Below the pieces are notes generated by a model, which saw nothing but the letters and a program-made list of their open reading frames with translations, made no database searches and was not told the DNA's origin. The translations under genes were made by a program, and so were the position numbers. A stretch of 64,000 nucleotides of DNA from a virus. The first letter of the stretch is position 1. The number at the start of each line of letters is the position of its first letter. Positions 24,086-63,075 of the stretch are shown piece by piece. The DNA lies in the IMG/VR virus record IMGVR_UViG_3300017940_000554, positions 4,429-68,428 of that record. One strand, 5' to 3'.

Positions 24086-24113
24086 CTTGCGCCTTGTTTT
24101 CCCATCCCTTGCG

Positions 24114-24198
24114 CCACCTGCGGTGGGGCCAACTGCTTCGCTTGACTGAGCAAAGCGTTGTGGCAGGATGAACTGACAGTGGCTGCATGCAATGCCTC
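24114..24198 (+). repeat. ~81-nt structured repeat unit fused to first CRISPR repeat
   Basis: CCACCTGCGGTGGGGCCAA...CTTCG..TTGACTG...GCTGCATGCAATGC; homologous to 31841-32042 and 63460-63624. Confidence 0.75.
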
Positions 24199-25839: not shown

Positions 25840-25852
25840 CTCTGCCCAGGTT

Positions 25853-26131
25853 TTACCGTGCAGAAGAAGTCAGCCAGGAGCGCAACACCTCATTGGTACG
25901 TCTCTGCCATCCTTCCCCTGTAGCGCGCAGGCCCTCGATGACATCGGGAGACAAGCGAATCGAAATAGGCACTTTGCGAGGAGCTTTCTGCTTGCCACGC
26001 TGACGAAGAACACGGAGCGTCTTCTGTTCAGCTTTTGGCAGCGCAGAAAAAGGTACGAGAAAAGCAAAATCTTCTTCCGTTAATTCGCGCACTTCGCCAT
26101 CGTCGTCAATCAATTTTTTGGTGATCGCCAT
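25853..26131 (-). CDS. BrnA-family antitoxin (orphan)
   Basis: RG.QKAPRKVPISIRLSPDVIEGLRATGEGWQRRTNEVLR C-terminal RHH signature. Confidence 0.8.
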   Translation of the reverse strand: MAITKKLIDDDGEVRELTEEDFAFLVPFSALPKAEQKTLRVLRQRGKQKAPRKVPISIRLSPDVIEGLRATGEGWQRRTNEVLRSWLTSSAR

Positions 26132-26200
26132 GCGCTTATTGTATATGCAGTTTGCCAAGATCAAAACATTATTTTTGATGGAGAGCATTACGGCCCCGGT

Positions 26201-26810
26201 GTTGCATCTCCGCAAGGCACCGCAATTCCATTGCTACAAAAGAAATCACGTTCATCAATCCGAGGCTCTTCGGTTGCATCTGTTCAATGCACTTAAACTA
26301 CGTTGCTACCCATCGAGGATAAGGCGGCCGGAAATTAAGACCAGCCGTTGCATCTGTTCGATGCACTTAAACTACGTTGCTACCCGTTGTTGTGTGGCTT
26401 AACTTCACCACTCCCTAAGTTGCATCTGTCCGATGCACTCAAAATGCGTTGCCACTCTGACAACTGAGTAAAGATGCTGAAATACCTCATGTTGCATCTG
26501 TCCGATGCACTCAAAATGCGTTGCCACGAACGTAGTTTTCCCAACACCGCCTTTGTGATTAGTTGCATCTGCCCGATGCACTTCAACCGCATTGCTACAG
26601 GGCGCAATGGTCACGGCCTCTCTGACCTCGCAGTTGCATCTGCCCGATACACTCAAACTGCATTGCTGCGCGAGTCTGAAGAGGAATGTACTTCAGGTCG
26701 ACGTTGCATCTGTCCGATGCACTCAAACTGCATTGCTACGTGGAAGGAAAGCGCAGATGTTCGAGTTCATCAAGTTGCATCTGCACGATGCACTGTTATG
26801 GCGCTTTTAT
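26201..26810 (+). CRISPR. CRISPR array 1b (9 repeats, 8 spacers)
   Basis: Same repeat family; first and last repeats degenerate. Confidence 0.93.
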
Positions 26811-27355
26811 AGTACCTGCCGGGCGGTATGTGCTGCCAAGCTTTTTTTTAAATAATCCTCATACTTCCGCAGCACGATCCCCCGTGCAATCGGCTGGCAA
26901 CGGTCGACAAAAAAGATGCCTTGCAGGTGGTCAATCGCGTGTTGCACCGTGCGGGCCGTCTGCCCCCTGTAGACAGCGATGTGAGCCGCTTCAGGGTTAT
27001 CTATCGTTCCGCTGCGCACGTGCGCTATCTCGCTCCGCCAGACGCGCGCCGTGGCCTGTTCGGCAGGCGGCAGGCTCACGCATCCTTCCGCCTCCAGCAG
27101 ATCTTTCCCACCCAAATTCACAATCTCCGGATTCACCAGAATCTCGATCTTTTCGCTGGGCAGCGTCACCAGCGCCAGCTGCAAATATGCGCCCACCTGC
27201 GGTGCAGCCAGTCCTTTCCTTCCTCGCTCTTTCATCCGCTGGGTCATTTCTTCTATCAAATCTTCAATCTTGTCTGACCAACTCACCCGCCGACACAGCT
27301 TGCCCACCAGTTCCTGGCGATAAAGATGAATCGATGCTTCTTTTTGCTCCAGCAT
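26807..27355 (-). CDS. def: peptide deformylase-like protein (catalytic Glu replaced)
   Basis: GLAAPQVG, LVNPEI, EGCVSLP, QHAIDHLQG instead of HExDH. Confidence 0.8.
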   Translation of the reverse strand: MLEQKEASIHLYRQELVGKLCRRVSWSDKIEDLIEEMTQRMKERGRKGLAAPQVGAYLQLALVTLPSEKIEILVNPEIVNLGGKDLLEAEGCVSLPPAEQATARVWRSEIAHVRSGTIDNPEAAHIAVYRGQTARTVQHAIDHLQGIFFVDRCQPIARGIVLRKYEDYLKKSLAAHTARQVL

Positions 27356-27505
27356 TCGCTCATTCCTCCATCAAGGAGTCATTGCCATCAACGCAATGTG
27401 AGCGCAATTGTAAAAGAGGATTTCTGGAGCGTCGTCCAACGTCGCAAAAAAGAGAGAATTGTCCCTTATGAACAGGCATAGCGCTTCTAAAAGTGCTTCC
27501 TACGT

Positions 27506-28219
27506 TCAGTTCAGTTTCGAAAGATCGGATTTCTCCTGCGAAAAGAGGGCATCCACACTCTGCATCAGGGAAGTCATGTCAACCACCCCGTTTTTTACCT
27601 CGATGTTCTTCTTTAGCACCAGAGCGGAGTAAATCACATCCTGATGCTTGATTACTTCTACTTCCAGTTGATGGATCGTTTCTTTTTGCTTTTCGACAAC
27701 TTCTTTCTGCATCAAAAAGAGATTTTGCAAGTTATAATTCCGCCACGCACGTACCACGCACAATACCAGCATACAAACCCCTAATCCAGCAGCGTGCCAA
27801 AACCACCGAAAAAAACACTCTGCCGCAATCACCGCTCCTCCCGTAAGCAAGAGCAGACACGAAGCAAATTCATTCGCAAAAAAAAGGTGCGGATGGTTCC
27901 GAATCCAAGAAACGATCAATAGCTTTGCGGCTGTGCGTGGCTTCTCCGCAGGAACTTCGCTCATCGTTGATTCCTCTTTCTGTTGCTGCAACCACACACG
28001 CACGGCAGCATCGGCGGCTTCGCGGCGCGTCATGCCTGGCGGATCGCCTTCCATCGCTCCTGGAATAAAACAAGAACACCGACGCTCCAAGTGCGCTACT
28101 GAACCAATCACACCCCGCAATCCACAGTTCTTATGCATTGCGTCCTTGCCATTGTTTGTAGAGATGATCTGATCACCAATTGCGATCTCTTCGCCACAAT
28201 GAAGGCATTTCATCCGCAA
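27506..28219 (-). CDS. hypothetical membrane protein
   Basis: N-terminal Cys/His motif, 2 TM segments, coiled coil. Confidence 0.5.
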   Translation of the reverse strand: MRMKCLHCGEEIAIGDQIISTNNGKDAMHKNCGLRGVIGSVAHLERRCSCFIPGAMEGDPPGMTRREAADAAVRVWLQQQKEESTMSEVPAEKPRTAAKLLIVSWIRNHPHLFFANEFASCLLLLTGGAVIAAECFFRWFWHAAGLGVCMLVLCVVRAWRNYNLQNLFLMQKEVVEKQKETIHQLEVEVIKHQDVIYSALVLKKNIEVKNGVVDMTSLMQSVDALFSQEKSDLSKLN

Positions 28220-28554
28220 CTCTCCGCTTTAGCCAAAGTCTTCACTGGAATTTCTTTAGGCCATGCAGGCGCCAAAGGATGATCCCCGCAAACCGCTGTC
28301 AATGGCGCATGTTTTTTCTCTGGTTTCAGCATCACTGGCCCTGGCGCATTGAAGTCATACGCATAGAATTCACACAGCATGGTCCACATCACTTTAAGCC
28401 GTTTACCACACTCCGCACATCGCACTCTTCGGTTAAAACGTAAAAAACGAACAGTTGCACGCTGTTCTTCGGTAAACATCGAATTGGGTTTTGCCTCTAG
28501 AATCTCGACAGCAAGTATGCCAACACGCTTATCGTCTTCTTTCTTCACAGCCAA
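28210..28554 (-). CDS. hypothetical protein (CxxC)
   Basis: Operon-coupled ORF. Confidence 0.5.
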   Translation of the reverse strand: MAVKKEDDKRVGILAVEILEAKPNSMFTEEQRATVRFLRFNRRVRCAECGKRLKVMWTMLCEFYAYDFNAPGPVMLKPEKKHAPLTAVCGDHPLAPAWPKEIPVKTLAKAESCG

Positions 28555-28793
28555 ACCTCGACAATACAGGGGTCGTCGTTTTCAAAGCGTTCCAACCGGA
28601 AAAGCCCTTGCGGCACACATTCGCGGATCTCCGCAAGCGTATCGGCAAAGGCTGTTTCATCGGTTGCTATCATTACGCTTCCTGAGATATCCCAACGGCG
28701 CATCACATACTTGTCCGGATAATCCCGTGGATGTGCGTAGATCACCCATTGCGACAGTTCCATTCGTGGACGGTTCGGAGAATCGTTTTCCAT
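28545..28793 (-). CDS. hypothetical protein
   Basis: WVIYAHPRDYPDKYV...DDPCIVEVWL. Confidence 0.55.
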   Translation of the reverse strand: MENDSPNRPRMELSQWVIYAHPRDYPDKYVMRRWDISGSVMIATDETAFADTLAEIRECVPQGLFRLERFENDDPCIVEVWL

Positions 28794-28882
28794 CGTTTCA
28801 ATCCACGCACCGCTCGCAGTGCGACGGCTTTCCGCTGTTCGCTTCTGGCAAAAGGCGACGAACGAACAGCGGAAAACTGTTT

Positions 28883-29407
28883 TTATCGTTTTGCCAGATC
28901 GGCCAAGTTGGAAGAAACAACCCGGACAAACTCTTTTTCCGGCAATCCGTTTTCGCGGGCAATCTGTTCAGCCAGGCTTTCCAGCCGTCCCATTGCATAG
29001 CCCATCAAAGCCGCTGAAATCGGAGACTGATCCACACGCTTCTGCACCACCAGCGCCTTCGCAGTCGGTGCCGTCACTTCCGGTTTGGCTTTCACAGGAT
29101 GATGTGACTTTTTCGCAGGAATTGGTTTTTCCACCTTCTTGTTTTCCACCTTCTTGTTTTCCACCTTCTTGTTGTGCTTCTGGTGATAAGCCAAGGTAGA
29201 AGGAGCAACCCCGGCAACGCCGTGTTTTGCGTGGCGATGTGCTCCCAAACCACGCTTGTCCCCAAAAGCCACTTTCTTCCCCGCCTTCTGGCATTCAGGA
29301 CAAACGAAACTTTCCGGTTTTGATTCCATCGTGTCTTCCTCGCCTCTTAAAGTCTCCAAACTGGTCGAACTGGACTCGTCGGGAGCTGCATTTTCATTAG
29401 GAATCAT
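28883..29407 (-). CDS. C2H2 Zn-finger-like basic protein with KKVEN repeats
   Basis: CPEC...GLGAHRHAKH; tandem 15-nt repeats at 29129-29172. Confidence 0.5.
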   Translation of the reverse strand: MIPNENAAPDESSSTSLETLRGEEDTMESKPESFVCPECQKAGKKVAFGDKRGLGAHRHAKHGVAGVAPSTLAYHQKHNKKVENKKVENKKVEKPIPAKKSHHPVKAKPEVTAPTAKALVVQKRVDQSPISAALMGYAMGRLESLAEQIARENGLPEKEFVRVVSSNLADLAKR

Positions 29408-29473
29408 CTTAACGCCTCCACAAATCTTATGGATACTAAACACATGGAAAAAATTCAAAAGGTACTATTTGAA

Positions 29474-29860
29474 TCATTCCACCGCGCTCCACGGTTTCAG
29501 TCCGTACTTCTCCCACCGTGGGTCAAACCAACAGTTTTTTGGCGCACCAGCAAAGAACGGAGCAATCTGTTCGTCGATGAATCCTGCTAAACCGCAGCCC
29601 ACACGCACAACTTTAAAATCCAACTCCGAATGAGCCCGCGCGTATTCCAGAAACAGATCCACGCTGACATGAATATCCATCAGATGCCTTACTTTATACG
29701 GCGTTTCCTTGGTCGGAATGGCGTAAGCATCGCCTGTTCGGCCTTCACCCACGCCCCATTGCGCACCGTAACTTTCTACTGCGATCCGCGCCGTACCCGC
29801 ACCGTGAATGCCTTTGCAATTCGAGCCAAAAACGAAAATCCATTTACGAACTATACTCAT
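29474..29860 (-). CDS. macrodomain-like phage protein (A1S_2505-like)
   Basis: IFVFGSN..G.HGAGTA, YAIPTK, VGCGLAG. Confidence 0.7.
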   Translation of the reverse strand: MSIVRKWIFVFGSNCKGIHGAGTARIAVESYGAQWGVGEGRTGDAYAIPTKETPYKVRHLMDIHVSVDLFLEYARAHSELDFKVVRVGCGLAGFIDEQIAPFFAGAPKNCWFDPRWEKYGLKPWSAVE

Positions 29861-30485
29861 CCTGGTTGCCGTCTTTCTGCGCTTCGATCTTCTTGAACGA
29901 AACCGACCACGCCCAAGCGTTCTCCTCCCAATCGGTCTGCTTCAAACCATCGGCAAGAACATCTTCCAAACGAATCGCCTGCAAACGTAGAATCTTGATC
30001 TTGGTGACTTTCAACCATAAGCGCGCTGCCCACCGCGGCATCGTGGTCGGCGTGCGCCACAAATTATCCGAAGCTCCCCGCCCACACTCTTCCGGTTCTT
30101 TGCCTGGAAAATCCGAATAGAAGATGATTCGTTCGCGCCAATAGGGTTGTAAATCTGGCGTCTTTTCCACGCGCCAGTCTAGTGGCATCCGGTAGTCTTC
30201 AAGCTCCATCGGATAGGGCTCTACCCGTGCCCACATCTGCCGTACCCACAACTGGTCTCCCGGAAGCCCATAAGGACAACGCCAGTTCTGGTTTTTATCT
30301 TTGGCATCGTACCAATTAAGACGCGCCATGGTGTCTTGTATCAAGGATTTCGTGTTTTCCGGTTGCGGATAAAGCAACCGATGGGTGTGCGTGATCGTTC
30401 CATTTTCAATGCCTTCAATGCTGCTGGAGGAAAAGCTGATCGGCCGACGGCTCGAAGGCTGGGCGATAGAAACAAGGTTCTTCAT
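29844..30485 (-). CDS. ASCH/PUA-like phage protein
   Basis: CPYG.PGD.LWVR, MPRWAARL.L.VT. Confidence 0.6.
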   Translation of the reverse strand: MKNLVSIAQPSSRRPISFSSSSIEGIENGTITHTHRLLYPQPENTKSLIQDTMARLNWYDAKDKNQNWRCPYGLPGDQLWVRQMWARVEPYPMELEDYRMPLDWRVEKTPDLQPYWRERIIFYSDFPGKEPEECGRGASDNLWRTPTTMPRWAARLWLKVTKIKILRLQAIRLEDVLADGLKQTDWEENAWAWSVSFKKIEAQKDGNQDEYSS

Positions 30486-30838
30486 ACATTCGTCTTTCCC
30501 ACTGTGTGGACGTACACTTTCAGTTCTTTTTCCTGGGCAATCTTAATCATGTGTCGGGTTCCTGGGCTTTTCCCATTCCACAACGCAATCAAAGCGTCGG
30601 CGTAGTCCGCCATGCGCACATTCCGCTGATAGCCTGCGCTATGCCCGTCCTCTTGCCAGCGGGCGGGAAAGCTGACCACCGGAATCGAATGCTGCTCGGC
30701 CCACCAGCGCCCCATCTTGTCTACGCCTCGTGCTTCGCCACAAACGACTTCCGTGATTTCAAAACCGCACGCCCGAATCGCAGCATGAAGCTGTTGCATA
30801 TCGGTAATGGATCGACTGCCGGCGATGATCGTTTTCAC
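30482..30838 (-). CDS. SLOG-family (DUF2493/YspA-like) protein
   Basis: IIAGSR, G.ARGVD, AG..RN..M, WNGKS.GT..MI. Confidence 0.75.
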   Translation of the reverse strand: MKTIIAGSRSITDMQQLHAAIRACGFEITEVVCGEARGVDKMGRWWAEQHSIPVVSFPARWQEDGHSAGYQRNVRMADYADALIALWNGKSPGTRHMIKIAQEKELKVYVHTVGKTNV

Positions 30839-31416
30839 TCTTCGGCTCCCGCACTCAATCCGTCAGACGGTTTGGTCCAGTCTTCCGGCAATCGCATTTT
30901 GGCATACCATCGAAAACCCGAACGCATCCATCCTTCATAACTCACCTGATACCGGTAATGCTTGTTCGATACACACCACTCACCATACGGAGGGTTCATA
31001 TCCTGCAACAACAAGTCATCAAAACCGGGAAGATTTTCCCGAGTAATCAATCTCCAGTCATAGTCTTTTGCAAACTCTGTCACCACCGCATTTTCGTTAT
31101 GGAGTACAGCCTTGCAATGATCCGCAACTTCTGCCGCACGGCCTGCTGATCTTTTTCCGTTTTGATAATTTCCAAGAACTTCTACGGCACTTTTTAACAG
31201 CGTGCGCAACTTTTCCGCTTGTTGTGCAAGCCCCAGCCAAGACCACGAATCATTGCTCAATGGCCCACTTTGTAAAGCATCGGTCATCTCACTTAAAATC
31301 GTCTCTAAGTGCGTGCGCAGGGCATCTTTCTCGCTCACCTCTTGCTCTAGCTCTGCGATATACGCTTCAAGGAATGCCAGCCTTTGGCTACCACAACTAT
31401 TTTCGGCTTCCTGCAT
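30835..31416 (-). CDS. hypothetical protein
   Basis: Coiled-coil ORF in operon. Confidence 0.45.
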   Translation of the reverse strand: MQEAENSCGSQRLAFLEAYIAELEQEVSEKDALRTHLETILSEMTDALQSGPLSNDSWSWLGLAQQAEKLRTLLKSAVEVLGNYQNGKRSAGRAAEVADHCKAVLHNENAVVTEFAKDYDWRLITRENLPGFDDLLLQDMNPPYGEWCVSNKHYRYQVSYEGWMRSGFRWYAKMRLPEDWTKPSDGLSAGAEE

Positions 31417-31654
31417 TTTTCTTCTCTTTCTCCAGTTCCTCGGAGTCCTCCACCAGCCCCCAGATCTCGTCCACATGGATCTGCAAATAGCGAGCCAGCT
31501 TCAGCGCCGTATCCAAACTCGGCCTGCGACCATTTTCTATCTCCAGATAGCTCGACCGCGCAATGCCCGATTTCGCGCTGACTTGGGAAGCCTGAACTCC
31601 AGCCTCATGCCGCAATTCGCGCAAATCCATCAGGAGTTTCACATCCTCTTTCAT
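31397..31654 (-). CDS. XRE-family HTH regulator
   Basis: LRELR...IARSSYLEIENGRRPSLDTALKLA. Confidence 0.8.
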   Translation of the reverse strand: MKEDVKLLMDLRELRHEAGVQASQVSAKSGIARSSYLEIENGRRPSLDTALKLARYLQIHVDEIWGLVEDSEELEKEKKNAGSRK

Positions 31655-31840
31655 CGTCGTTCCTCTCGCCTCATCGGCTTTTCTTCCAGCCAAACCGACC
31701 GTACAGCCTGCTGGTTTGGAAACCGTTTTTCATGCCCCCAATTTTTATTCCAATAACAGTATCCATTTTGAACCAGAAAAACCACATAAAAAGTCATTGT
31801 ATCCAGCTTTTTGTCCAATGCACGCAATTTTTTTACCCCC

Positions 31841-32042
31841 CCACCTGCGGTGGGGCCAATGGGCTTCGCCTTGACTGGGCTATTGGTAGTGGCAATCGCT
31901 CGGAAAGTCCGCTGCATGCAATGCCCTGCGGTGGGGCCAAAGGGCTTCGCCTTGACTGGGCTATTGATCGTGGCAATGGCTGGGGAAGTTTGCTGCATGC
32001 AATGCCCTGCGGTGGGGCCAAAAGGCTTCGCCTTGACTGGGC
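31841..32042 (+). repeat. tandem ~81-nt structured repeats (about 2.5 units) upstream of CRISPR array 2
   Basis: CCTGCGGTGGGGCCAANGGGCTTCGCCTTGACTGGGC-variable hairpin-GCTGCATGCAATGC with 81-nt period. Confidence 0.85.
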
Positions 32043-32080
32043 GAACGGGGGAAGATTTGTAAGACGTGGAAGAGTAGCAA

Positions 32081-32615
32081 GTTGCATCTGTCCGATGCAC
32101 TCTACTTGCATCGCCACCGCTTCAGGATAAGAACGACACTGAGACGCTGCTGTTGCATCTCCCCGATGCACTTTACTTGCGTTGAAATGGCTAGATCGGT
32201 TGATTTACCAACATACAAGGGTTGCATCTACTCGATGCACTCTACTTCGTGACTACTGACGGACACCCTGTTTTGCGTGTGTGGTGCAAGGTTGCATCTG
32301 CACGATGCACTTTAAACCCGTTGCGATCCCAATAAAGGAATGGTTGAACTCCCCAATCCCAGTTGCATCTCCCCGATGCACTTTACCTGTGCTGAAACGG
32401 CTAGGCTAGCCGATTTACCAACACATACAAGGGTTGCATCTACGCGATGCACTTTACCTGCGTTGAGACCGTATAGACCTGCAAGCTTCTGTTGGAGCCT
32501 TGTTGCGTTGCATCTGCCCGATGCACTTCAACTCCATGAAGACACACCTACGGCCTGCCAACGCTAGCCACCAACTGCGTTGCATCTCTCCGATGCACTT
32601 TAATTACGTGAGGTT
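32081..32615 (+). CRISPR. CRISPR array 2 (8 divergent repeats, 7 spacers)
   Basis: GTTGCATCT-N3-CGATGCACT hairpin conserved, 3' half variable. Confidence 0.88.
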
Positions 32616-32846
32616 GGCTTTACTCTTGGCCAAGTGCGTCGGTCTTCACCTTCAGTGTTCCATCGCCAACTCCGGCACTTTCGATTCCAACACCGCGGAG
32701 GCAAAGCTTTGCTTTCGTCGTAGACCTTCTTGGCCTTACAAACATCGCACACCAGGATTTTGCCTTCGATGATCACTCAACCAATGTAACTGATCAGCCT
32801 TTATCTGCCAAATATATAGGTACAGACGCCCTATTTATAGGGTACA

Positions 32847-33548
32847 ATGTGCCTATTACGGCCGTTGCAAATCTCTCTGCTTGGTGCAACGTTTTGGGAA
32901 AAGGAAATGTTGATGGAAAACGCTTCAGTCTATTTTCGCAAATCCCCTAGTCTCAACCCAAAGAAGGCAGAAGAACACCTTCAACAGATGAACGCTCTAA
33001 TCACTCAAAATGGCTGGCATGCGTTTCGTGTTTATTGTGATACTGAACAGCTCAGTAAACCGCATCTTCCTGCCTACGAACAGATGCTCTCCGATGCCGC
33101 CAAGCATCGTTTTGATATTCTCGTTTTTTGGTCGTTGTCGGGATTATCCCAGCAAAACACGGCAAAAACCGTGTTATTGCTGCATCGGCTCTCTTCTTGG
33201 GGGGTTCGTTTTTGTTCCTATACTGAGCCGCACCTGAATACCTGCAACAATCTCAAAGACACTGTTACTTCTCTTCTTGCCACATTGGCTCAACAAAACA
33301 GTTTCTATATCAGCCACCGGACGCGTGCTGGCCTTGAAGATCAGCGTCAAACCAACAAACCTGGTTCCAAAGGCTATTTCGGCCCTGGACGCCCTGCGGT
33401 GGTCTTCGATGAAAAACTCGCGCTTTCTCTTCGCAGCCAGAAAAAAAAGATGTCGTATCAATCTATCGCTGAGAAATGCGGCGTTTCCAAAGCAACCATC
33501 TTTCGTTTTTTCAAATCTCTTGATGCAGAAGACCCAAAGAAAAAATAA
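32847..33548 (+). CDS. degenerate resolvase-like serine recombinase with HTH
   Basis: VYFRKS, RFDILVFWSL, ISHRTRAGL, GRP and HTH; DRLxR replaced by SGLSQ. Confidence 0.7.
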   Translation: MCLLRPLQISLLGATFWEKEMLMENASVYFRKSPSLNPKKAEEHLQQMNALITQNGWHAFRVYCDTEQLSKPHLPAYEQMLSDAAKHRFDILVFWSLSGLSQQNTAKTVLLLHRLSSWGVRFCSYTEPHLNTCNNLKDTVTSLLATLAQQNSFYISHRTRAGLEDQRQTNKPGSKGYFGPGRPAVVFDEKLALSLRSQKKKMSYQSIAEKCGVSKATIFRFFKSLDAEDPKKK

Positions 33549-44483: not shown

Positions 44484-46141
44484 TTCGTGTGCCCTTCATC
44501 GCTCATGCGCTCCGTTTCAAGGTAGCTTTCGATAAACGCTTGCGCCGCTGGAACACAGATCGCATCGCCGTAGAGGCGAAGTCGTCCCACGCGGGCGGCA
44601 CACCCATGAGCCAGCGGCTGTGTGCCGGATTCAACTGGCCGGAACTTTCCATCGCGGCATCCGATCCAGTCAGCACCTCTCCAGAAGCCGTTAAGCGGAC
44701 CGGGCCGCTCAATTGCGCTACGTTCTCTAGCGCCGCCTGTGCTTTCGTTCCATCCGGCTTGCGCTGGCTCATCGTCACTGCATCCGATTGCACCCTGCCA
44801 CCATTCGGGCAATTCGGCGTCGGCCACGCCGCCAGTTGCGTAAACTTTGTCAGGTCGCTTCCTGTGCAGTTCTCCGTTTGGATATTCCCGCATTTCGGGT
44901 CCGTCTGCCTTGGCGTCGGCCAACTCGCTAATTCCACCGTCTTGCGGCTGCTGTCGTTGTTCCCCGCTTCGTTGTTCCCGTTCTGTGCAGGGGTTCCCGC
45001 CATCGGCGTCGGCCAGCCCGCCAGATGTTTCGCTTGATTGGCTAACTGATCCATGTGCATTCGCCCCGTACCCGTCTCCGTTACATGAAGATGGCTGTTC
45101 GCGCCCTTCCAATCCCGTTCCGCTGGTGTCGCCCACGCCGCCAAGGACGCCTGAATCGCCAGATCCTGACCATAGCCCTCGCGCAGTCGCGCCTTCCCCG
45201 CTGTCTGGTCTGTGTCGTGCGGTGCCGGTCCTGTCGGTGTCGCCCACGCCGCCAAATTCGCTTGACTGTGCAGCGTGTCCGCTTGCCCCCGATGTGCTCC
45301 CGCACATTCCGAGTCCTCGCTGCGTGGCGTGCTCCAGCTCGCCAGCATCGCGTAGTCGTTCAGGTTCGAGGATTGTGCGATCCCACTTGGTCTCTTCGAA
45401 ACGAGCGCACGTTTCGCTTGTCCGCCGCCGGTCATATCGCTCACTTGCGGACTCGGCCAGCCGGTCAGTGTCGCCGCATTGCTCAGGTCGTGCGGAAAGG
45501 AATGGTTGTCTGCTTCTGTATTGCCCCGCAGCTTGTCGTCGTGTGTCTGCGGCGTCGGCCACGCACTCAGCGGCGAAGCCGCCATTAGCCCCACCGCAGG
45601 TGGCGCAGGTGGCGGTGAAGTAGAGGCGTTGACGGATGTGCGGAGCGCCGACGCTGCACGCTCCAAGTACCGCCTTCCCAACGGCGTACTCTTGTGCTTC
45701 CAGGTCAGTTTGAACAAGGTCGAGCCAGCCATGTCCAATCGCGGCACTAACCTGCTCTCCAAAGATTGTTGTAGGGTGACACTGGCGGATGAGTCGTGCC
45801 CAAGCAGGCCAGAGGTGACGAGGGTCTGCAAACCCTTCGCCTTTGCCCGCTGCGCTGAAGCTCGGGCAGGGGCAACTTCCGGTCCACACTGCCCGGTTGT
45901 CGTGCCATCCGGCTTGGCGCAGGGCGAGGCTCCAGAATCCGCCTCCGGCAAAGAAGTGGCATTGGGTATATCCCACAAGGTCATTTGGCTCGACATCGAC
46001 AATGCTCCGTTCATCCACATCTCCCGGTGCAATTGCATTGGCCCGAATTGCTTCTCGCAGAATCTCTGCTTTCAGCGTGTCGATCTCGTTGTAATAAGCA
46101 GCCACCCGCATAGCCTCAGCCTCAGTGTTGCATTTGTTCAA
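44480..46141 (-). CDS. C5-cytosine DNA methyltransferase, alpha-type frame
   Basis: Permuted start YYNEID, HFFAGGG, GSCPCPSFS, FGEQV, APHIRQRLYF, motif X LRLYGDAI. Confidence 0.85.
   Translation of the reverse strand: MNKCNTEAEAMRVAAYYNEIDTLKAEILREAIRANAIAPGDVDERSIVDVEPNDLVGYTQCHFFAGGGFWSLALRQAGWHDNRAVWTGSCPCPSFSAAGKGEGFADPRHLWPAWARLIRQCHPTTIFGEQVSAAIGHGWLDLVQTDLEAQEYAVGKAVLGACSVGAPHIRQRLYFTATCATCGGANGGFAAECVADAADTRRQAAGQYRSRQPFLSARPEQCGDTDRLAESASERYDRRRTSETCARFEETKWDRTILEPERLRDAGELEHATQRGLGMCGSTSGASGHAAQSSEFGGVGDTDRTGTARHRPDSGEGATARGLWSGSGDSGVLGGVGDTSGTGLEGREQPSSCNGDGYGANAHGSVSQSSETSGGLADADGGNPCTEREQRSGEQRQQPQDGGISELADAKADGPEMREYPNGELHRKRPDKVYATGGVADAELPEWWQGAIGCSDDEPAQAGWNESTGGARERSAIERPGPLNGFWRGADWIGCRDGKFRPVESGTQPLAHGCAARVGRLRLYGDAICVPAAQAFIESYLETERMSDEGHTK
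44503..45996 (-). CDS. overlapping alternative-frame subunit with ~8 W(P/S/A)TP repeats and motif IX
   Basis: Open frame nested in the MTase gene; ends in LNPAHSRWLMGVP. Confidence 0.65.
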   Translation of the reverse strand: MSSQMTLWDIPNATSLPEADSGASPCAKPDGTTTGQCGPEVAPARASAQRAKAKGLQTLVTSGLLGHDSSASVTLQQSLESRLVPRLDMAGSTLFKLTWKHKSTPLGRRYLERAASALRTSVNASTSPPPAPPAVGLMAASPLSAWPTPQTHDDKLRGNTEADNHSFPHDLSNAATLTGWPSPQVSDMTGGGQAKRALVSKRPSGIAQSSNLNDYAMLASWSTPRSEDSECAGAHRGQADTLHSQANLAAWATPTGPAPHDTDQTAGKARLREGYGQDLAIQASLAAWATPAERDWKGANSHLHVTETGTGRMHMDQLANQAKHLAGWPTPMAGTPAQNGNNEAGNNDSSRKTVELASWPTPRQTDPKCGNIQTENCTGSDLTKFTQLAAWPTPNCPNGGRVQSDAVTMSQRKPDGTKAQAALENVAQLSGPVRLTASGEVLTGSDAAMESSGQLNPAHSRWLMGVPPAWDDFASTAMRSVFQRRKRLSKATLKRSA

Positions 46142-46228
46142 TGCACTGCAACTCCGTCGCGAAAAGAGCGTAACGGGTCATCAGCCACAATAAAAATCTG
46201 TAGCTCAAGGCACGCTGCTAGAAGTGAG

Positions 46229-46634: not shown

Positions 46635-47891
46635 TCACGCAACGAGGCGTATCCTGGACGAAATGCTGTTACGCATTTCGTCCAGGGCATCCGCCCACGC
46701 TTGCATCATTTCTGCCCGTTGATCCAGATACTGGGCGTAGTTATAAGCGCGTTCCGTGGCATTTCCGTTCAAGTGGGCTAGTTGTGTTTCCACGTATTCC
46801 CGAAGGTATCCATGTTCGCGCAACCAGGTTGAAGCGATTCCTCTCCATCCATGGCCCGTCATCCGTTTTCTGTATCCAAGCCGTTCCAGCATTTTCAAAA
46901 GCGTATTCAGCGACATGGTTTCATAACGAAGGGTCCGGATCTTCGGAAACAAGTAGGGAGTATTCCCTGTCATTCTGTAGAGCTGTTCCAGCAGCTGGAT
47001 GGATTGTTTGGCCAGGGGAACGATATGAACGGTTTTCATCTTCATGCGTTCTCCTGGGATGCGCCATTGTTTTTTCTCAAAGTCGATCTCCTCCCAACGG
47101 CCTCCGATCAGTTCTCCAGTGCGCACGAATGTCAGGCTGAGCAGTTCCATTGCCATCCGGACTAGCACATTGCCGCCGTAGTCTCTGATCTTGCCAAGCA
47201 ATTCCGGCACATCTTTTATCTCCAAACGGGCAAAATTCTGGGCAGTCTTTCTGCTCAGGATGTGTTTCGGCCGGATTCCAGAAGCCGGATTCACATCGAC
47301 AAGACAGCAATCGATGCCGTGTTCATAAACTTGGCTGATGTGCTGCAGTTCGCGCAGAGCAACATTGTGGACTCCTCGCCCGTCCACTCCTTGGATCAAT
47401 CGGACAATATCGGCGCGGGTAATTTTCTTGGGATGCCATTTCCCGATGACTGGAAAGATGTCGGTTTCGAACCGGCGTTCAGAAGCGAGGGCATAGCGCG
47501 CATTTTTATCTTCTCGCCACCACGCCAGCCATTGGCGGGCGAGTGCTTCAAAGGTGAATCCGTTGTCTTTTTCTGCTTGGGATTGCAGTTCCTGTTTGGC
47601 CTTGACTTCTTTTTTGGCTTCTTTCCGAAGGGCCATTGGGTCGACGCCAGTTGCCAGGAGAGCCCGAGCCTGGGAGTGGAGAACCCGAGCGTTTGCCAGT
47701 GATATATCTGGGTACTTCCCGAGCGCCATTTCCTTTTGCTTACCTTCAAACATGTATTTCCAGCGCCACAATTTGCCTCCCTGGGGGGTGATCAGGAGGT
47801 GCAATCCGTGCTGGTCGGTAAGGCGATACGGCTTGAGATTCGGCTTGGCTTTCTCGCATTTCAGGTTGTTCAATTCGCTCAAAGTGCCCAT
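46635..47891 (-). CDS. int: P4-type tyrosine integrase
   Basis: Arm-binding N-terminus (GLHLLITPQGGKLWRWKY, LGKYPDISL), VRTGE, RMK, HGWR, LAH, AYNYAQY. Confidence 0.92.
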   Translation of the reverse strand: MGTLSELNNLKCEKAKPNLKPYRLTDQHGLHLLITPQGGKLWRWKYMFEGKQKEMALGKYPDISLANARVLHSQARALLATGVDPMALRKEAKKEVKAKQELQSQAEKDNGFTFEALARQWLAWWREDKNARYALASERRFETDIFPVIGKWHPKKITRADIVRLIQGVDGRGVHNVALRELQHISQVYEHGIDCCLVDVNPASGIRPKHILSRKTAQNFARLEIKDVPELLGKIRDYGGNVLVRMAMELLSLTFVRTGELIGGRWEEIDFEKKQWRIPGERMKMKTVHIVPLAKQSIQLLEQLYRMTGNTPYLFPKIRTLRYETMSLNTLLKMLERLGYRKRMTGHGWRGIASTWLREHGYLREYVETQLAHLNGNATERAYNYAQYLDQRAEMMQAWADALDEMRNSISSRIRLVA

Positions 47892-47926
47892 GTTTACTGC
47901 CTTTCCTCGACTTTTTGTGTTTTTTA

Positions 47927-48245
47927 GAAATACCATGTTTTCAAAACATGGTATTTCTTGCGATCAGCCCTAAAAATACCATAAAAAAATCGCTGTTTCG
48001 CAAAGAATCTCTTCACGCTTCGCTGTGCTTATTGAACAGGAGGCGAGCCAGAAGATTTCTGTAAGCGTTAGATTTTATGGGAGATATATTCGGAAGAAGC
48101 GTCGAGGAACGTCGAGAATGAACGAGAATGTAGTGATTGAAAAGCTGCCCAAATTTTTTGAAAGTGCATCCGATTTATCTTTATTATCAACTATTTACAG
48201 TTTAAATAACGAAAATACCATGAAAAATACCAGGGAGCCTAAAAA
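47927..48245. other. attP-like region with arm-type repeats
   Basis: AAATACCA(T) repeats at ~47928 (with inverted partner), 47973, 48213 and 48224 flanking non-coding DNA upstream of int. Confidence 0.5.
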
Positions 48246-51405: not shown

Positions 51406-51517
51406 AAGAATCGCCTTCGCCGTTCTTGGGTAATCTGAGAGATAGTCCGAACTGATTTTTTTGTCTACGGTAAAAAATGGTGTAGACGCAAAGCTGTGTT
51501 TGTCCTATGCTGCGCGC

Positions 51518-51715
51518 ATGGAAAAGAGACCAAAGCTGGCCAAAGAGGGAAAGCTCAGCAAGGATGATCCGGAGTTTTATTCAAAGATTGCGGCGATTGC
51601 GGGGAAAAAACTGGTGCGCAAGCATGGCACAGAATATTTTTCTAAATTAGCGGCCAAGAGCCATCCTCGGGATCACTATAACGGTGGTCGTCCGCCCAAA
51701 AAAAAGGTGGCATAA
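51518..51715 (+). CDS. small basic KGG-repeat-like protein, probably leaderless
   Basis: EFYSKIAAIAG/EYFSKLAAK repeats; TAGACG-17-TATGCT promoter 7 nt upstream of ATG; runs into array 3. Confidence 0.6.
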   Translation: MEKRPKLAKEGKLSKDDPEFYSKIAAIAGKKLVRKHGTEYFSKLAAKSHPRDHYNGGRPPKKKVA

Positions 51716-52461
51716 AGATCTGTTTAATGCACTCAAACTGCATTGCTACATTCCATCACCCAAGCAAGTTTGAGAGATTTCAGGTTGCATCTGTTCGATG
51801 TACTTAAACTGCGTTGCTACGCGGTACTCTTGACAGAGTGGGGATTTTATGATGTTGCATCTGTTCGATGCACTTAAACTACGTTGCTACCATGAAAAAC
51901 GCAAATAGGGCTTGACAGATTTTCAGTTGCATCTGTTCGATGCACTCATACCGCATTGCTACGGCCGATGAACTGCCCGGTCTGGTGGTGGACAAGTGTT
52001 GCATCTGCCCGATGCACTCAAACTGCATTGCTACAGTGGTCGAAGGAGATTGAAAAGCATGCGTTTTAGTTGCATCTGCCCGATGCACTCATACCGCATT
52101 GCTACCATGGCGGGGAAGCTGCGCGCTGGATCGAGCAACAGTTGCATCTGCCCGATGCACTCATACCGCATTGCTACGAGCAATGTGCAGGGATAGGATC
52201 GCCATCTTCAAGTTGCATCTGCCCGATGCACTCAAACTGCATTGCTACGAGAGCGACTCGACAGAATGCCGGCTCACGTAAGTTGCATCTGCCCGATGCA
52301 CTCAAACTGCATTGCTACTTCTCTTGCGCCATGCAACGTCAACAACAATAAAGTTGCATCTGCCCGATGCACTCAAACTGCATTGCTACGATTCACGGTT
52401 GATAGCCGTGAAGGGGACTCTGTTGTTGCATCTGCCCGATGCACTCAAACTGCGTTGAGAC
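51713..52461 (+). CRISPR. CRISPR array 3 (11 repeats, 10 spacers), convergent with cas12
   Basis: GTTGCATCTGCCCGATGCACTCAAACTGCATTGCTAC; most homogeneous array. Confidence 0.95.
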
Positions 52462-52518
52462 TGGCTTCTCCGCGAACCTCTCGCATTTTGTCGGTTGCTC
52501 CTGGTTCGCGGAAAGAGT

Positions 52519-54756
52519 CTACTCTTTGCTTCCACCGTGCAACGCTTTTTCCGCCAACGCGGGATCGCCGTCAAAGCGCACCAGATTGATGGCCGTATTG
52601 TGATCCTGCTTGATCTCCCGTCCACATCCTTCGCAGTTGAACTTCTCCTTTTCGTTCGACGGATTCAGATGGTCGCAGAAATGGCAAATACGCGTGAGGT
52701 TGATATTCTCGTGAGCCTCCACCGCATATCCATACTTCACCGCCGTGTTTTTCAATATACCGATGAATTTTGCGGGCGCTACAAACTGCCGATATTTCTG
52801 TGACCGCTTCAAACTCTCTGGATCTTCATTATCGTGCCGTTGTGCTACCTTGGATAGAAAACTGTCCTCCACAATCAGCCGTTCGATTCCCTTCTCTTTC
52901 AGATACCGGCAAATGTCGTGCGCCACCTGCGCATGACCGTATTCCACCCGCTTGGTCGTTTGATCAAAATAAGCCGAAGTCAATTTCCGAACTTCCTTAT
53001 TCTTTTTCTCCCAATCGTTCACAATCTCCAGCACGGTTGGGTCATCCATGAATTCCAGCGCCACTTTGTGCAAGCCATTACTCCCAGCCTTTTCCAGCCA
53101 CGCCGGAGTGCGTTCGCCCAAATGTTTGCGCAGCAGGATTTTAGCTGTGTCTTTCAAATAATCGCAGCGTGCCGCTAACGCCATGCGCGTCTCAATAATG
53201 CCCGGAATCGCCTCTCCTGGCTTCCACTTGGGATGGAGTGCGGTAATATGGTGCTTCTCCCAGCGGGTAGGGCCAAGATCAATGCGGAAGGCTGTGCGAT
53301 CCTTGTGATCCTTCGGAGAACGCTGGAAGTCGATCATGGCTTCCCGAATCGTCTTGGTTGCCGGTTCGTAGAGCGTAGCAAAGCGGATGCCTTCCTCGGT
53401 GCGCCGCCAGCCAATTTCCAAGCCGGCCGAAAGCACGGCAGCAGGTTTGGGCACCGGTCGTTGCAGCTCCACCACCAGGCACAGCCAAAGCTTGCCATCC
53501 TGATAGATCAACTTCCATTCCTTCAAATGAGAGTTGGGCGGCAACGCCCGATGTTGCAGCACCGCAAAGCGGAAATCATGCCGGGTTTTCTCCGGTTCGT
53601 CCCCAGGGATAGAAATCGTAGCTTCCCGCATCCTCCGGTACTCGACTCTCTTCCCTGTCATCTCTTTGTGGCCTGTTTCGGAAGGAGGCAACGGTAATCC
53701 AAAACTGAGTGCCGGTACGCCACTTCCGGACTCAAGCAATGTTGAGTCCACTCCGGCTTTGTTAAAGTAGTAATGCACGCCCCAATTGGCCGCTTTGGGG
53801 CTGTCTGGATACTTGAGCAATGGCCAGCCTTCCGACCAGGGCGCTTTGGTGGTTTTACGCCGGTCCAGCACAGCTTTAAAAGCGCCTACGGTTGGCCGGA
53901 TTTCAAAACGCCGCAGCCCTAGCGCCACCGCTTCTCGCTCAGCAATCGCCGCAAAGTCGTTCATAAACTCATTCAGCGGCGTGTACTCCGCTTTGAACTG
54001 CTCGGCAAAACCAACCACTTTTTCCAGCAATCCATCGGGTACAGCACGTTTCTTTTCAATCCGTCCGCGCAGCTCCCCAACAAAACTCCACAAACCGTCA
54101 ATGCCCGGCATCTCGATCTTCAGTTTAGCCGGATGCCGCATCTTTTCCTTGGTTCTGGCTCTTCCCAGCATCAGGTTGAAGGCATCAATTTCGGGCAAAA
54201 TCGTGTTGTTCACAAATTCGATAATCTCTGCCGTCGGTGCTGGAGAACACTTGCGCCGGGCATCGCGGCAGAGCCATGCCAACCGGTTCCACAATGCCTT
54301 TTGCCGCCCAATACAATCCTTGAGCCACTGCGGCAATCCGGTGCCCTGCTCCGATTCATCGTCAATGCTGGTATTGATGCCTGGATGCGTAAAATAGGCT
54401 CGATACTTGTAGATTTCGTTCGTCCACCCATCCTCGGCTGGAAACAGGCGCGGAGTCTTCGCCATACCACCCATATGCAAAATTCCGGGTTGCTTTTCAT
54501 TGGCGGATAAAACCCCTTCGCGTCTCTGTTTCCGCTGCAGTCCTCCAATCGTCATCAAACGCAACTGCAAATTCAAACCCTTTTCCAAAAGAAGACCCTC
54601 GGGCAGAGCCACGGGCGGAAGCTTCGCAAAAACCGCCGTCCGCGCCACACTGTCAAAAACAATACTGCCATGGGTAAAAGCCTTCGTCGTCTTCAGCGAA
54701 GAATCCTGCGGATACACGTAAAGTGTTTTGTCCTGGTAGGTCAAATGATCTATCAT
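52519..54756 (-). CDS. cas12m: type V CRISPR effector, Cas12m (V-M/V-U1)-like
   Basis: 745 aa; QKALWNRL, QHRALP, RuvC-I GLEIGWRR..GIRFATLY, RuvC-II LIVED, CHFC/CEGC Zn ribbon, RuvC-III QDHNTAINL; adjacent array. Confidence 0.8.
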   Translation of the reverse strand: MIDHLTYQDKTLYVYPQDSSLKTTKAFTHGSIVFDSVARTAVFAKLPPVALPEGLLLEKGLNLQLRLMTIGGLQRKQRREGVLSANEKQPGILHMGGMAKTPRLFPAEDGWTNEIYKYRAYFTHPGINTSIDDESEQGTGLPQWLKDCIGRQKALWNRLAWLCRDARRKCSPAPTAEIIEFVNNTILPEIDAFNLMLGRARTKEKMRHPAKLKIEMPGIDGLWSFVGELRGRIEKKRAVPDGLLEKVVGFAEQFKAEYTPLNEFMNDFAAIAEREAVALGLRRFEIRPTVGAFKAVLDRRKTTKAPWSEGWPLLKYPDSPKAANWGVHYYFNKAGVDSTLLESGSGVPALSFGLPLPPSETGHKEMTGKRVEYRRMREATISIPGDEPEKTRHDFRFAVLQHRALPPNSHLKEWKLIYQDGKLWLCLVVELQRPVPKPAAVLSAGLEIGWRRTEEGIRFATLYEPATKTIREAMIDFQRSPKDHKDRTAFRIDLGPTRWEKHHITALHPKWKPGEAIPGIIETRMALAARCDYLKDTAKILLRKHLGERTPAWLEKAGSNGLHKVALEFMDDPTVLEIVNDWEKKNKEVRKLTSAYFDQTTKRVEYGHAQVAHDICRYLKEKGIERLIVEDSFLSKVAQRHDNEDPESLKRSQKYRQFVAPAKFIGILKNTAVKYGYAVEAHENINLTRICHFCDHLNPSNEKEKFNCEGCGREIKQDHNTAINLVRFDGDPALAEKALHGGSKE

Positions 54757-54986
54757 TCCGAATCTCTCCTCGTTTCCTCATCCTTGCAAACCACATACTG
54801 TTTTCTCGTATTGTCGTACATCATTGCTTTGGGGTGCAGCCTCCGGAAATTGCGCAGATCAATCGATGCCTGCGCAATCGACAAATCAAACTTGCGCATC
54901 AGATGGCACCGGTTGATGAACCCGAAAATGCGCAGGGTTTCTTCAATCCATTCCATCCGGTAATTTTCAAACCAACGCTCTTTCAT
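54753..54986 (-). CDS. stand-alone CapW/WYL-regulator-type winged HTH
   Basis: RMEWIE..L...GFINR.HL..KFDLS..QASIDL..F....P..M.YD...K.Y; ATGA-coupled to cas12. Confidence 0.7.
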   Translation of the reverse strand: MKERWFENYRMEWIEETLRIFGFINRCHLMRKFDLSIAQASIDLRNFRRLHPKAMMYDNTRKQYVVCKDEETRRDSE

Positions 54987-55171
54987 GCGGTCTCCGCATC
55001 ATTCGATTGGCTCTTCAGCTCTTTCACGTAACGCAAAAACGCCGCCAGAACCGCAGGCTCCAGATAGACCTGGTTTGTCTTGCGGATTCCGTTGGAGGCA
55101 TACAGCTCAATCTGCCAGCCATCAAAGGCGGCATAGAGCCCATCGCCCAAGTAGGTGTCTTCTTCCATCAC
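54983..55171 (-). CDS. hypothetical protein
   Basis: YLGDGLYA.FDG small phage protein, coupled. Confidence 0.6.
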   Translation of the reverse strand: MMEEDTYLGDGLYAAFDGWQIELYASNGIRKTNQVYLEPAVLAAFLRYVKELKSQSNDAETA

Positions 55172-55485
55172 GCGTCCGATTCGTTCTCGCTTCGTTCGGC
55201 AACTTCTCGGTCCAAATCCGCACGAAAATCCCGAAACTCCTGCATCAGTGCTGCCGCAGCGCCGTCAGGAAACTCCGATTTTTTAAAGAATTTCAGGATC
55301 ATGGCATCGGCTTCGGTGCGCGCCGCCATCTGCAGAATGTCCATCGCCACCTGCCGCGCATCACTCATCGAAAATTGAGCGATCATGCCTTTTTCGTTCG
55401 AAAGCTGCACGTAGGGTTTATGGTCGCGTACAGCCACAACTCCATTCACCCAAAATTGACTGGTTTTTTCTGGATCGTGTGCCAT
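55168..55485 (-). CDS. hypothetical protein
   Basis: First gene of the coupled operon ending in cas12. Confidence 0.6.
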   Translation of the reverse strand: MAHDPEKTSQFWVNGVVAVRDHKPYVQLSNEKGMIAQFSMSDARQVAMDILQMAARTEADAMILKFFKKSEFPDGAAAALMQEFRDFRADLDREVAERSENESDA

Positions 55486-55573
55486 GCGCGCAATTATAGC
55501 GCTTGCCGCGCAGGCAATAGCGGCTTCGCCGCAAAATTAAATGGGCCGCCCGCTACCGCGCGGACGGCCCGTA

Positions 55574-55646
55574 TCATCGACGCCGGAGTCGAACCGGCGA
55601 CATTCTGATTAGAAGTCAGACGCTCTCCCAACTGAGCTAGTCGATT
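55574..55646 (-). tRNA. tRNA-Arg(TCT)
   Basis: Cloverleaf; anticodon arm TCTGA-CTTCTAA-TCAGA; GGTTCGACTCC; no encoded CCA. Confidence 0.8.
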
Positions 55647-59323: not shown

Positions 59324-59400
59324 TGGTGACCCCGGCTGGGATCGAACCAGCGACTAACGGTTTAGGAAACCGCTACTCTATCCAACTGAGTTACGGGGTC
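59324..59400 (-). tRNA. tRNA-Arg(CCT)
   Basis: Full cloverleaf with encoded CCA; loop TTCCTAA. Confidence 0.9.
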
Positions 59401-62673: not shown

Positions 62674-62750
62674 TGGTGGAGCCCGCGGGTCTCGAACCCG
62701 CCACCTCCTGGGTGCAGGCCAGGTGCTCTCCCAACATGAGCTAGAGCCCC
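62674..62750 (-). tRNA. tRNA-Ala(TGC)
   Basis: G3:U70 pair, encoded CCA; unusual C33. Confidence 0.85.
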
Positions 62751-63000: not shown

Positions 63001-63075
63001 TGGGGTGCAGGGCGGGATTCGAACCCGCGTAAACCAGTGCCACAGACTGGCGCCTGACCACTCGGCCACCCGCAC
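63001..63075 (-). tRNA. tRNA-His(GTG)
   Basis: Cloverleaf, loop CTGTGGC, C73 discriminator, CCA. Confidence 0.85.

Follow-up and report, generated by a model that had tools for sequence, protein, structure and literature searches.

Type V-M CRISPR-Cas systems, formerly named V-U1, rely on the compact effector Cas12m. Cas12m proteins with D-E-D, H-D-D and N-D-D RuvC sites all bound and none cut (PMC11013384), and in Cas12m2 the non-target strand is held at the RuvC site by way of a single Mg2+ (PMC10442227). A V-M locus is described as an effector with arrays and without cas1, cas2 or cas4 (PMC10691335), and V-M is enriched on plasmids, with some systems in prophages (PMC11656645). Phage-borne, adaptation-less compact type V systems are already known (PMC12607003, PMC11656645), and phages under 200 kb are said to carry CRISPR systems only rarely (PMC11656645). 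Here we analyze a type V locus of a phage whose hosts are peat-soil Acidobacteria, found in a 64,000-nt stretch of viral DNA (the window; bases 4429-68428 of the single 68,428-bp IMG/VR record IMGVR_UViG_3300017940_000554, all coordinates below being window positions). The locus consists of a cas12 gene on the minus strand (52519-54756), an open reading frame (ORF) for a 745-aa Cas12m-like type V effector, and four arrays of one 37-nt repeat family. We consider it, at a probability of roughly 0.6, to be a working, adaptation-less, binding-type type V CRISPR-Cas system of a temperate Acidobacteria phage.

A Cas12m-like effector from a larger sister branch

Pfam recognized in the effector only a Cas12f1-like TNB zinc ribbon (E 8e-7), and the single sequence, searched against solved structures, had no matches other than Cas12m (best E 1.8e-5) and a single TnpB-like protein from a virus, over its C-terminal part only. 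A profile of 48 family members (profile A1) found Cas12m among the solved structures at E 2e-21. From the profile search we also took 20 Cas12m-type representatives of 560-622 aa to build profile A3, which matched solved Cas12m proteins over their full length (E 8e-168 to 1e-82). When the two profiles were compared with hhalign, they aligned with a probability of 100% (E 6e-52) over 530 columns at 18% identity, query residues ~110-739 falling onto positions 8-578 of the 603 of profile A3. Residues ~110-740 of the effector are thus homologous to full-length Cas12m, with its WED, REC, RuvC and TNB parts, and residues ~1-105 form an extra N-terminal domain.

The fold and the motifs were compared in the same manner. 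The AlphaFold model of the effector (pLDDT 84.4) had Cas12m2 as its best Foldseek match (E 7e-19), and in VIA comparisons it came closest to GoCas12m (Z 18.7, rmsd 7.7, 512 aligned) and Cas12m2 (Z 18.5, rmsd 6.3, 461 aligned), followed by the best Cas12f (16.1), TnpB (13.2-13.6), CasPhi (12.7) and CasLambda (12.4); the Cas12m structures compared were MmCas12m2 8hhl/8hio, GoCas12m 8pm4, Cas12m 23vw and UnCas12m4a 23vu. An earlier reading of this DNA, made from the sequence only, had pointed to the Cas12m motifs GWR..G.R.AT and HRxLP. Both held up: RuvC-I of the effector reads SAGLEIGWRRTEEGIRFATL, with LQHRALPP upstream of it, and profile A3 carries the same motifs as GIDxGWR...LRVA and LHRPLP. 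Motifs in common with V-M are HRxLP (WED), D/E-x-GWR...G-x-R-x-A (RuvC-I), QDxNAAxNL (RuvC-III) and the CxxC zinc ribbon, present in the effector as CxxC...CxxC at residues 691-711. Collectively, sequence profile, fold and CRISPR RNA (crRNA) handle, described below, support Cas12m as the closest known family.

The sequence-only reading was therefore right about the nearest relative, but the protein is not an ordinary Cas12m, because it has 745 aa instead of the ~600 expected of this compact family (~577-614 aa in the solved chains), carries an extra N-terminal domain and matches the V-U1 profile only in part. The best PADLOC model, Cas12u1, gave 90.9 bits over residues 394-727 only, which falls short of a member-like, full-length match to the curated V-U1/Cas12m profile; three Cas12m-type representatives scored 226, 295 and 313 bits over the whole of it. 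The first ~105 residues form a conserved alpha/beta domain, with a pLDDT of 79.6 when folded alone, for which no clear counterpart was found among solved structures (best VIA Z 4.2; no Foldseek match at E<=0.001). Structural alignments to Cas12m all start near residue 105, and a further insert, also unlike V-M, lies at ~466-520. The family to which the effector belongs comprises 103 clusters at 90% identity, drawn from metagenomes and from metagenome-assembled genomes (MAGs) of Terracidiphilus/Acidobacteriaceae. We conclude that it is a distinct, larger and unnamed sister branch of Cas12m (V-M), of ~650-850 aa. We did not find this branch described in the accessible literature on Cas12m, phage type V or Acidobacteria prophage CRISPR, whose supplementary tables (PMC11013384, with 134 Cas12m variants, and PMC10691335) may list members.

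CasPhi (Cas12j) and CasLambda (Cas12l) resemble the locus in other respects, since they too are phage-encoded single effectors of ~700-800 aa with arrays, usually without adaptation genes, and their handle is likewise the 3' hairpin of the repeat. Their folds, however, are more distant (Z 12.4-12.7, below Cas12m, Cas12f and TnpB), and neither the effector (by phmmer) nor the family profile gave a sequence match to them. They also reside in huge phages, in contrast to the temperate 68-kb record studied here (51% complete) and its 99%-complete relative of 133 kb.

Four minus-strand arrays share one repeat family

The sequence-only reading had proposed one 37-bp repeat family in four dispersed arrays with about 48 spacers. 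The family and the places of its arrays were borne out, and the count came to 51 repeats and 47 spacers. Array A1 (24248-25839) has 23 repeats and 22 spacers, array A2 (26201-26810) 9 and 8, array A3 (32081-32615) 8 and 7, and array A4 (51713-52461), which begins 57 nt past the cas12 stop, 11 and 10. Searching the window with the 37-nt repeat gave 20 copies at no more than 3 mismatches, against 0.00 expected from 100 shuffles, and 45 copies at no more than 10 mismatches, all on one strand. Using the conserved 21-nt half as query added degenerate copies, bringing the total to the 51 array repeats and one lone copy. With the exception of one 13-nt spacer in array A1, the spacers are of 32-39 nt (46 of 47), so that the family shows the regular direct repeats and uniform, unique spacers of CRISPR arrays. 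No sequence common to the four array leaders was found, and no Rfam CRISPR-DR family reached its gathering score. Several separate arrays per genome were likewise present in four of five related phage records (G001, G002, G003 and G004), as seen in a handle-core scan that does not cover the fifth (G005), in which the repeat has diverged. Such a layout, with 47 spacers in four arrays here, differs from the V-M arrays, which are described as short (PMC10691335).

The arrays are minus-strand units, like cas12. This follows because six G-U cells of the repeat stem would be C-A mismatches on the other strand, because array A4 has mutually identical repeats at its cas12 end and a degenerate one at its far end (the last repeat, 51713-51749, which has lost its hairpin), because in relatives with cas1 the array follows cas2 on the strand of the gene, and because the handle fits the scaffold design of Cas12m2. 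The repeats of array A3 have diverged strongly in their 5' halves. Two spacers of the same array, 32399-32432 and 32189-32220, are diverged copies of each other, so that either part of the array was duplicated or variant targets were captured twice.

The crRNA handle is conserved and covaries

The minus-strand repeat ends in AGTGCATCG-NNN-AGATGCAAC, which forms a 6-bp hairpin with a 5-nt loop. Across the 51 repeats, identity to the consensus was 77% in the 5' 16 nt, 79% in the loop and 98% in the rest of the 3' 21 nt. All six pairs are intact in 46 repeats, with 299 of 306 cells paired, and the exceptions include the last repeats of arrays A4 and A2. To examine covariation we chose 25 repeats from the window and nine relatives. 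In this set all 150 cells were paired and four of the six pairs had changed on both sides, giving the compensated stems GCATC/GATGC, GCACT/AGTGC and GCACC/GGTGC; the covariation score was reached by none of 500 shuffles, and slid controls were 20-51% paired. G18, A36 and C37 were invariant in all 25 aligned repeats.

In the Cas12m2 scaffold, a helix of positions -22..-17 with -8..-3 is closed by G(-23):A(-2), and the terminal C(-1) is read by His269/Arg270 (PMC10442227). The handle stem described here pairs -19..-14 with -8..-3, its loop having 5 nt where that of V-M has 8, and the effector carries His402-Arg403 within the conserved HRxLP motif. By sequence comparison, the G:A-closed 6-bp helix, the terminal C(-1) and the conserved His-Arg of the V-M scaffold are thus all present. 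Retention of the handle amid drifting neighboring bases indicates that each crRNA is under selection. In the window, no reverse-complement copy of the repeat was found at up to 10 of 37 mismatches, which is a weak test for a trans-activating crRNA (tracrRNA).

Adaptation genes are absent from the record and present in sister phages

No Pfam match for Cas1, Cas2 or Cas4 was detected in the whole 68,428-bp record, which CheckV rates as 51% complete, in agreement with the earlier statement that cas1 and cas2 are missing. The record thus presents arrays without other cas genes, as V-M loci do. The wider branch departs from this pattern. In two of five related viral records (G001 and G004), cas12 is followed by cas4 (211 aa), cas1 (343-346 aa), cas2 (96 aa) and an array, the order (cas12-cas4-cas1-cas2-array) seen in the fetched loci L001 and L004. 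L001 is the closest fetched relative with these genes; its effector is 68% identical to that of the window, and its Cas1 scored 472.9 bits on the type I-C Cas1c model (cut-off 385). Possession of a type I-C-like cas4-cas1-cas2 module by sister phages is a further difference from V-M. The array beside cas1 in L004 has near-identical repeats, and the drift of the window repeats outside the handle is as predicted where ongoing acquisition is absent.

The surroundings of cas12 are syntenic between the window and its relatives, with DUF7873 upstream and, downstream, a recombinase (ERF in L001, RecT in the window) and a conserved 84-aa convergent ORF. The slot between cas12 and the array is reduced to 57 nt in the window. 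Another relative, G005 (132,674 bp, 99% complete), is also without cas1, and among five MAGs a single weak Cas1 match was obtained, on another contig.

Glutamate at RuvC-I is a tolerated alternative

The RuvC residues of the effector are E447, E630 and D718. The sequence-only reading had taken Glu in place of Asp at RuvC-I for an altered site; the Glu is real, but it fails as the sign of a dead nuclease. In an alignment of 48 sequences, the RuvC-I column held D in 30, E in 14, H in 2, R in 1 and A in 1, while RuvC-II was Glu in 45 and RuvC-III Asp in 43. We then placed the residue on a quick IQ-TREE tree of 60 rows (L007, a 62-aa frame, was left out of both table and tree). Glu occupied RuvC-I in 16 of the 60 rows, which requires at least five switches. 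The clade that contains the effector has 11 rows, every one of them with Glu (support 100), and two sister pairs, P0023/P0030 and P0034/L002, differ by D/E at this position. L001, which has both Glu and the complete cas4-cas1-cas2, belongs to the same four-row subclade as the effector. Because the residue has switched at least five times and occurs in L001 beside an adaptation module, Glu is not a mark of inactivation; as judged from alignment and tree, it is a tolerated alternative carboxylate in a conservative D/E polymorphism.

The RuvC-I carboxylate has been lost elsewhere in the family. It is replaced by His in L012, L013 and P0102, which form a divergent clade, and in a second divergent clade (P0096-P0098, 656-694 aa) the position is H, R or A and the RuvC-III segment is missing. 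This loss in two divergent clades echoes the gradual inactivation described for V-M.

Some spacers match chromosome-type genes

The window spacers gave only chance matches of 12-17 nt to the phage itself and to the fetched loci, and 138 spacers from six related phage records showed no cross-targeting among those six genomes. Arrays A1 and A2 had no match in 50,697 phage records, and three 24-nt spacer seeds gave 0 matches each in IMG/VR. We also searched 301 sampled Acidobacteriaceae genomes, with only two candidates scored per genome, so that misses are likely. The arrays had matches at E<=0.01 in 8, 9 and 34 of these genomes; the arrays of two adaptation-proficient relatives gave weak partial matches in 4 of 301 and in 0 of 301.

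Spacer 32544-32578, the first of array A3, had matches in 25 of the 301 genomes at 83-92% identity. In ten fetched loci it had 3-5 mismatches over 35 nt, and in nine of the ten the match was antisense to the longest spanning ORF. This ORF is rmlB, encoding dTDP-glucose 4,6-dehydratase (TIGR01181, 509.8 bits, cut-off 365.1). The rmlB-like protospacer had 0 matches in two metagenome-contig scans. Spacer 24356-24389 matched a 270-aa gene over 31 of 34 nt, neither this gene nor its neighbor having a Pfam or PADLOC family, and spacer 51963-51997 matched a gene for an RlmI-like rRNA methyltransferase over 28 of 35 nt. As far as these matches show, some guides derive from bacterial chromosome-type genes.

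Other candidates were set aside. The match of spacer 26528-26561 (24 of 25 nt, Mrp-like ATPase) covers only the conserved Walker-A motif, two weak matches of spacer 52106-52140 were discounted as targets (one of them lies in the unpublished genome G257, and neither this genome nor G278, likewise unpublished, underlies any conclusion here), and several genome matches were discounted because they lay on repeats or conserved motifs.

Binding, cutting or decay

In the system that we favor, the four arrays would be transcribed from the minus strand, array A4 probably together with cas12. The effector would recognize the conserved 3' 21 nt of the repeat by its 6-bp hairpin, G-A closing pair and C(-1), the last being presumably read by His402-Arg403. 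We infer that the effector trims the pre-crRNA upstream of the handle to leave guides of ~33-35 nt, and that the guided complexes bind double-stranded DNA flanked by a protospacer-adjacent motif (PAM). By analogy with every Cas12m tested so far, a block of transcription or replication would be more likely than cutting, and the programmable repressor proposed by the sequence-only reading is plausible on the same analogy. The guide set would be inherited and not renewed by the phage, in contrast to sister phages that keep cas4-cas1-cas2 between cas12 and array, and the targets may include at least one host-type chromosomal gene (rmlB) in addition to other elements. The system would thus work most like V-M, with binding-based interference as its likely role.

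Several observations weigh against this interpretation. At an identity to Cas12m of only 18%, function may not transfer, and at its present completeness the record could have left cas1 and cas2 elsewhere in the phage. No exact protospacer was found in the collections searched, the best matches having 3 mismatches, and no PAM could be derived, since ..TTGGA and ..AGTTC, the 5' flanks of the best two matches, do not agree. The same metagenomes also contain array variants whose spacers differ, so that the guides may not be entirely fixed, and there were no RNA runs among the listed runs holding the stretch of cas12 and array A4. Finally, the RuvC triad is chemically complete (E-E-D), and D or E is kept at RuvC-I in 54 of the 60 tree rows, both of which fit an active nuclease equally well. 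In such a nuclease, E447, E630 and D718 would bind two metals, and the phage would cleave the host chromosome or competing elements, lytic growth being one possible occasion. The D/E swaps between sisters, with other residues rare outside the two divergent clades, do suggest metal-ligand selection, yet the one-Mg2+ binding of the non-target strand in Cas12m2 would select carboxylates as well (PMC10442227). The same paper leaves open that D-E-D Cas12m clades may hydrolyze DNA, whereas four D-E-D Cas12m orthologues were tested and none cut (PMC11013384). The full adaptation module kept in relatives is usual for cutting systems; an rmlB-like spacer carried by a cutting provirus, on the other hand, would risk self-killing if the match were exact, and no exact match is known. 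Taken together, we find an active nuclease somewhat unlikely.

It is less probable still, in our judgment, that the arrays are decaying relics of a system that lost cas4-cas1-cas2, has guides with nothing left to match, and is vanishing or only regulates phage genes through repeat hairpins. Decay would be in keeping with the 42 distinct sequences among the 51 repeats, with 5' halves only 77% like the consensus and with the lone repeats in front of phage genes described below. The pairs of the 21-nt handle, however, have stayed intact in 46 of the 51 repeats beside drifting neighbors, the 745-aa frame is unbroken and keeps every family-invariant residue, and peat metagenomes of the years 2017 to 2025 contain the same sequence in abundance. 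The lack of an exact target in any collection searched and the three or more mismatches of the rmlB-like spacer to every fetched host locus would also suit a relic, but target databases are thin for peat Acidobacteria and their mobile elements. We give very little credence to the effector being a transposon-type TnpB (OMEGA nuclease) with repeats unrelated to it. Its best NCBIfam names are TnpB families and Pfam sees only the TNB zinc ribbon, but the scores are far below the cut-offs (NF040570, 25.9 bits against 100; NF038280, 20 against 350; NF038281, 15.7 against 425), and the protein does not group with transposon TnpB. Moreover, its alignment to Cas12m covers the full length of the latter, an array on the strand of the gene begins 57 nt past it, cas4-cas1-cas2 occurs in relatives and the gene is present in a single copy, the only one with a TNB domain in the 68,428-bp record.

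If the binding-type reading is correct, a phage-borne sister branch of the size of a named family, with an extra domain, would be added to Cas12m, and its adaptation-proficient and adaptation-less forms would provide a natural series for the gain and loss of acquisition and nuclease activity in V-M. The phages concerned are a temperate group with several arrays each, against the described rarity of CRISPR systems in phages under 200 kb. The short (21 nt), well-defined handle makes the system easy to test.

Lone repeats precede phage genes

The single repeat copy outside the arrays lies at 46127-46163 on the minus strand. It has the compensated stem variant GCATT/AATGC and differs from a GAAC-loop array variant by two compensating stem changes. 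The copy ends 15 nt before the in-frame ATG (46111) of a C5 DNA methyltransferase gene, and its would-be guide spans GAGG, the ribosome-binding site, and the start codon of that gene. In G003, a degenerate repeat copy was found 67 nt before the homologous methyltransferase gene (L031, ~566), so that a repeat precedes this gene in two of four genomes; it is absent in G001 and G004. Other lone repeats stand before cas12 in relatives, 24 nt from its start codon in G003 (L030, ~10277) and about 16 nt from its start in L006 (~9965), and the G003 cas12 copy shares the GCATT/AATGC stem with the lone copy of the window. From these positions, phage messages or genes may be further targets of the effector, via lone repeats.

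CreR and long tracrRNA (tracr-L) are examples of crRNA-like autoregulation of cas genes. Viral single repeat units (Racr) also consist of an isolated repeat hairpin outside an array, as found here before the methyltransferase gene. Known viral single repeats mimic host CRISPR repeats and thereby inhibit host Cas proteins (PMC11656645), whereas the lone copies described here copy the phage's own repeat and lie in 5' untranslated regions on the sense strand. One could extend this to a non-cutting Cas12m-like protein acting as a hard-wired regulator, with ~47 guides, some of them silencing host genes such as rmlB, and lone repeats controlling phage genes, a proposal that we regard as unlikely. 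Were it true, silencing of rmlB would alter surface polysaccharide and hence phage adsorption, and guides directed at host genes would amount to a natural phage CRISPR interference for lysogenic conversion. The lone-repeat hairpins would let the effector bind the mRNA or DNA of the phage's own genes (the methyltransferase here, cas12 in relatives), which would be a new wiring of phage genes to a Cas protein.

Phage context and sequence variants

IMG/VR classes the record as a provirus. It contains genes for the large terminase (7189-9336), portal (4576-6648), major head protein (1325-2557) and a tyrosine integrase (46635-47936), together with a primase-helicase, two DNA methyltransferases, RecT and a PD-(D/E)XK nuclease. 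The integrase, terminase, portal, capsid and other phage genes therefore support a temperate phage, which confirms the earlier view that the effector is phage-encoded and the phage temperate. Carriage on a mobile element is shared with V-M, and residence in a temperate phage of ordinary size is a difference from it.

Twenty runs from peat or wetland, belonging to 19 studies, contained at least 95% of the words sampled from the stretch with cas12 and array A4 (51600-55600); 7 of the runs may be the source. Over the stretch with arrays A1 to A3 (24000-33000), contig pieces from four runs (2017, 2018, 2020 and 2025) differed by 0-1 letters in the listed pieces. In runs X4, X8, X12 and X15, low-depth contig joints across 24000-33000 hold other 29-39-nt inserts between repeats. 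One run shows an extra unit of array A3 at full depth; such a unit follows repeat 32507-32543 in X12 and probably also in X4. Array variants thus co-occur in the same metagenomes, either as relatives or through turnover by recombination or acquisition in trans.

Two serine recombinase (resolvase/invertase) genes (23423-24085 and 32847-33548, plus strand) and 81-nt repeat copies (~24114-24195 and ~31844-32042) flank the segment that carries arrays A1 to A3. Metagenome contig joints jump back ~7.8-7.9 kb between the 81-nt copies, the short side being only 40 letters, and may represent assembly ambiguity or rearrangement. Within the segment, the phage carries a host-like auxiliary gene, for a peptide deformylase (26807-27355, minus strand; Pfam E 5e-27), directly upstream of array A2. 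A 92-aa gene of the BrnA antitoxin family (25853-26131, minus strand; Pfam E 1e-17) separates arrays A2 and A1. Three Acidobacteriaceae genomes contain DNA resembling it (64-73% identity over 84-249 nt), and no BrnT partner was seen.

Three small ORFs of 105, 62 and 77 aa (54753-55485, minus strand) lie directly upstream of cas12. Since each overlaps the next gene by 4 nt, they probably form one operon with cas12. None of the three has a Pfam family; homologs of the 105-aa ORF were found upstream of cas12 in two of the five related phage records, and homologs of the 62-aa ORF beside or near cas12 in two of the five. A terminator-like hairpin of 11 bp, 10 of them G-C (55543-55570, minus strand), follows a tRNA-Arg and probably bounds the cas12 transcription unit on its upstream side. 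A scan for consensus promoters found 2, against 3.1 expected. On the other side, the 84-aa ORF (51461-51715, plus strand) is convergent with array A4. It adjoins the cas-adjacent array in four of the five related phage records and lies ~1.8 kb beyond the array in the fifth (G005); it is regarded here as a neighbor of the CRISPR system. The 57 nt between the cas12 stop and the first repeat (52462-52518, minus strand) contain a 9-bp inverted repeat, CCGCGAACC...GGTTCGCGG, without a U-tract, as read by eye. The window also carries four ordinary tRNA genes on the minus strand: Arg-tct (55574-55646), with the terminator-like hairpin immediately downstream of it and ahead of the cas12 operon, Arg-cct (59324-59400), Ala-tgc (62674-62750) and His-gtg (63001-63075).

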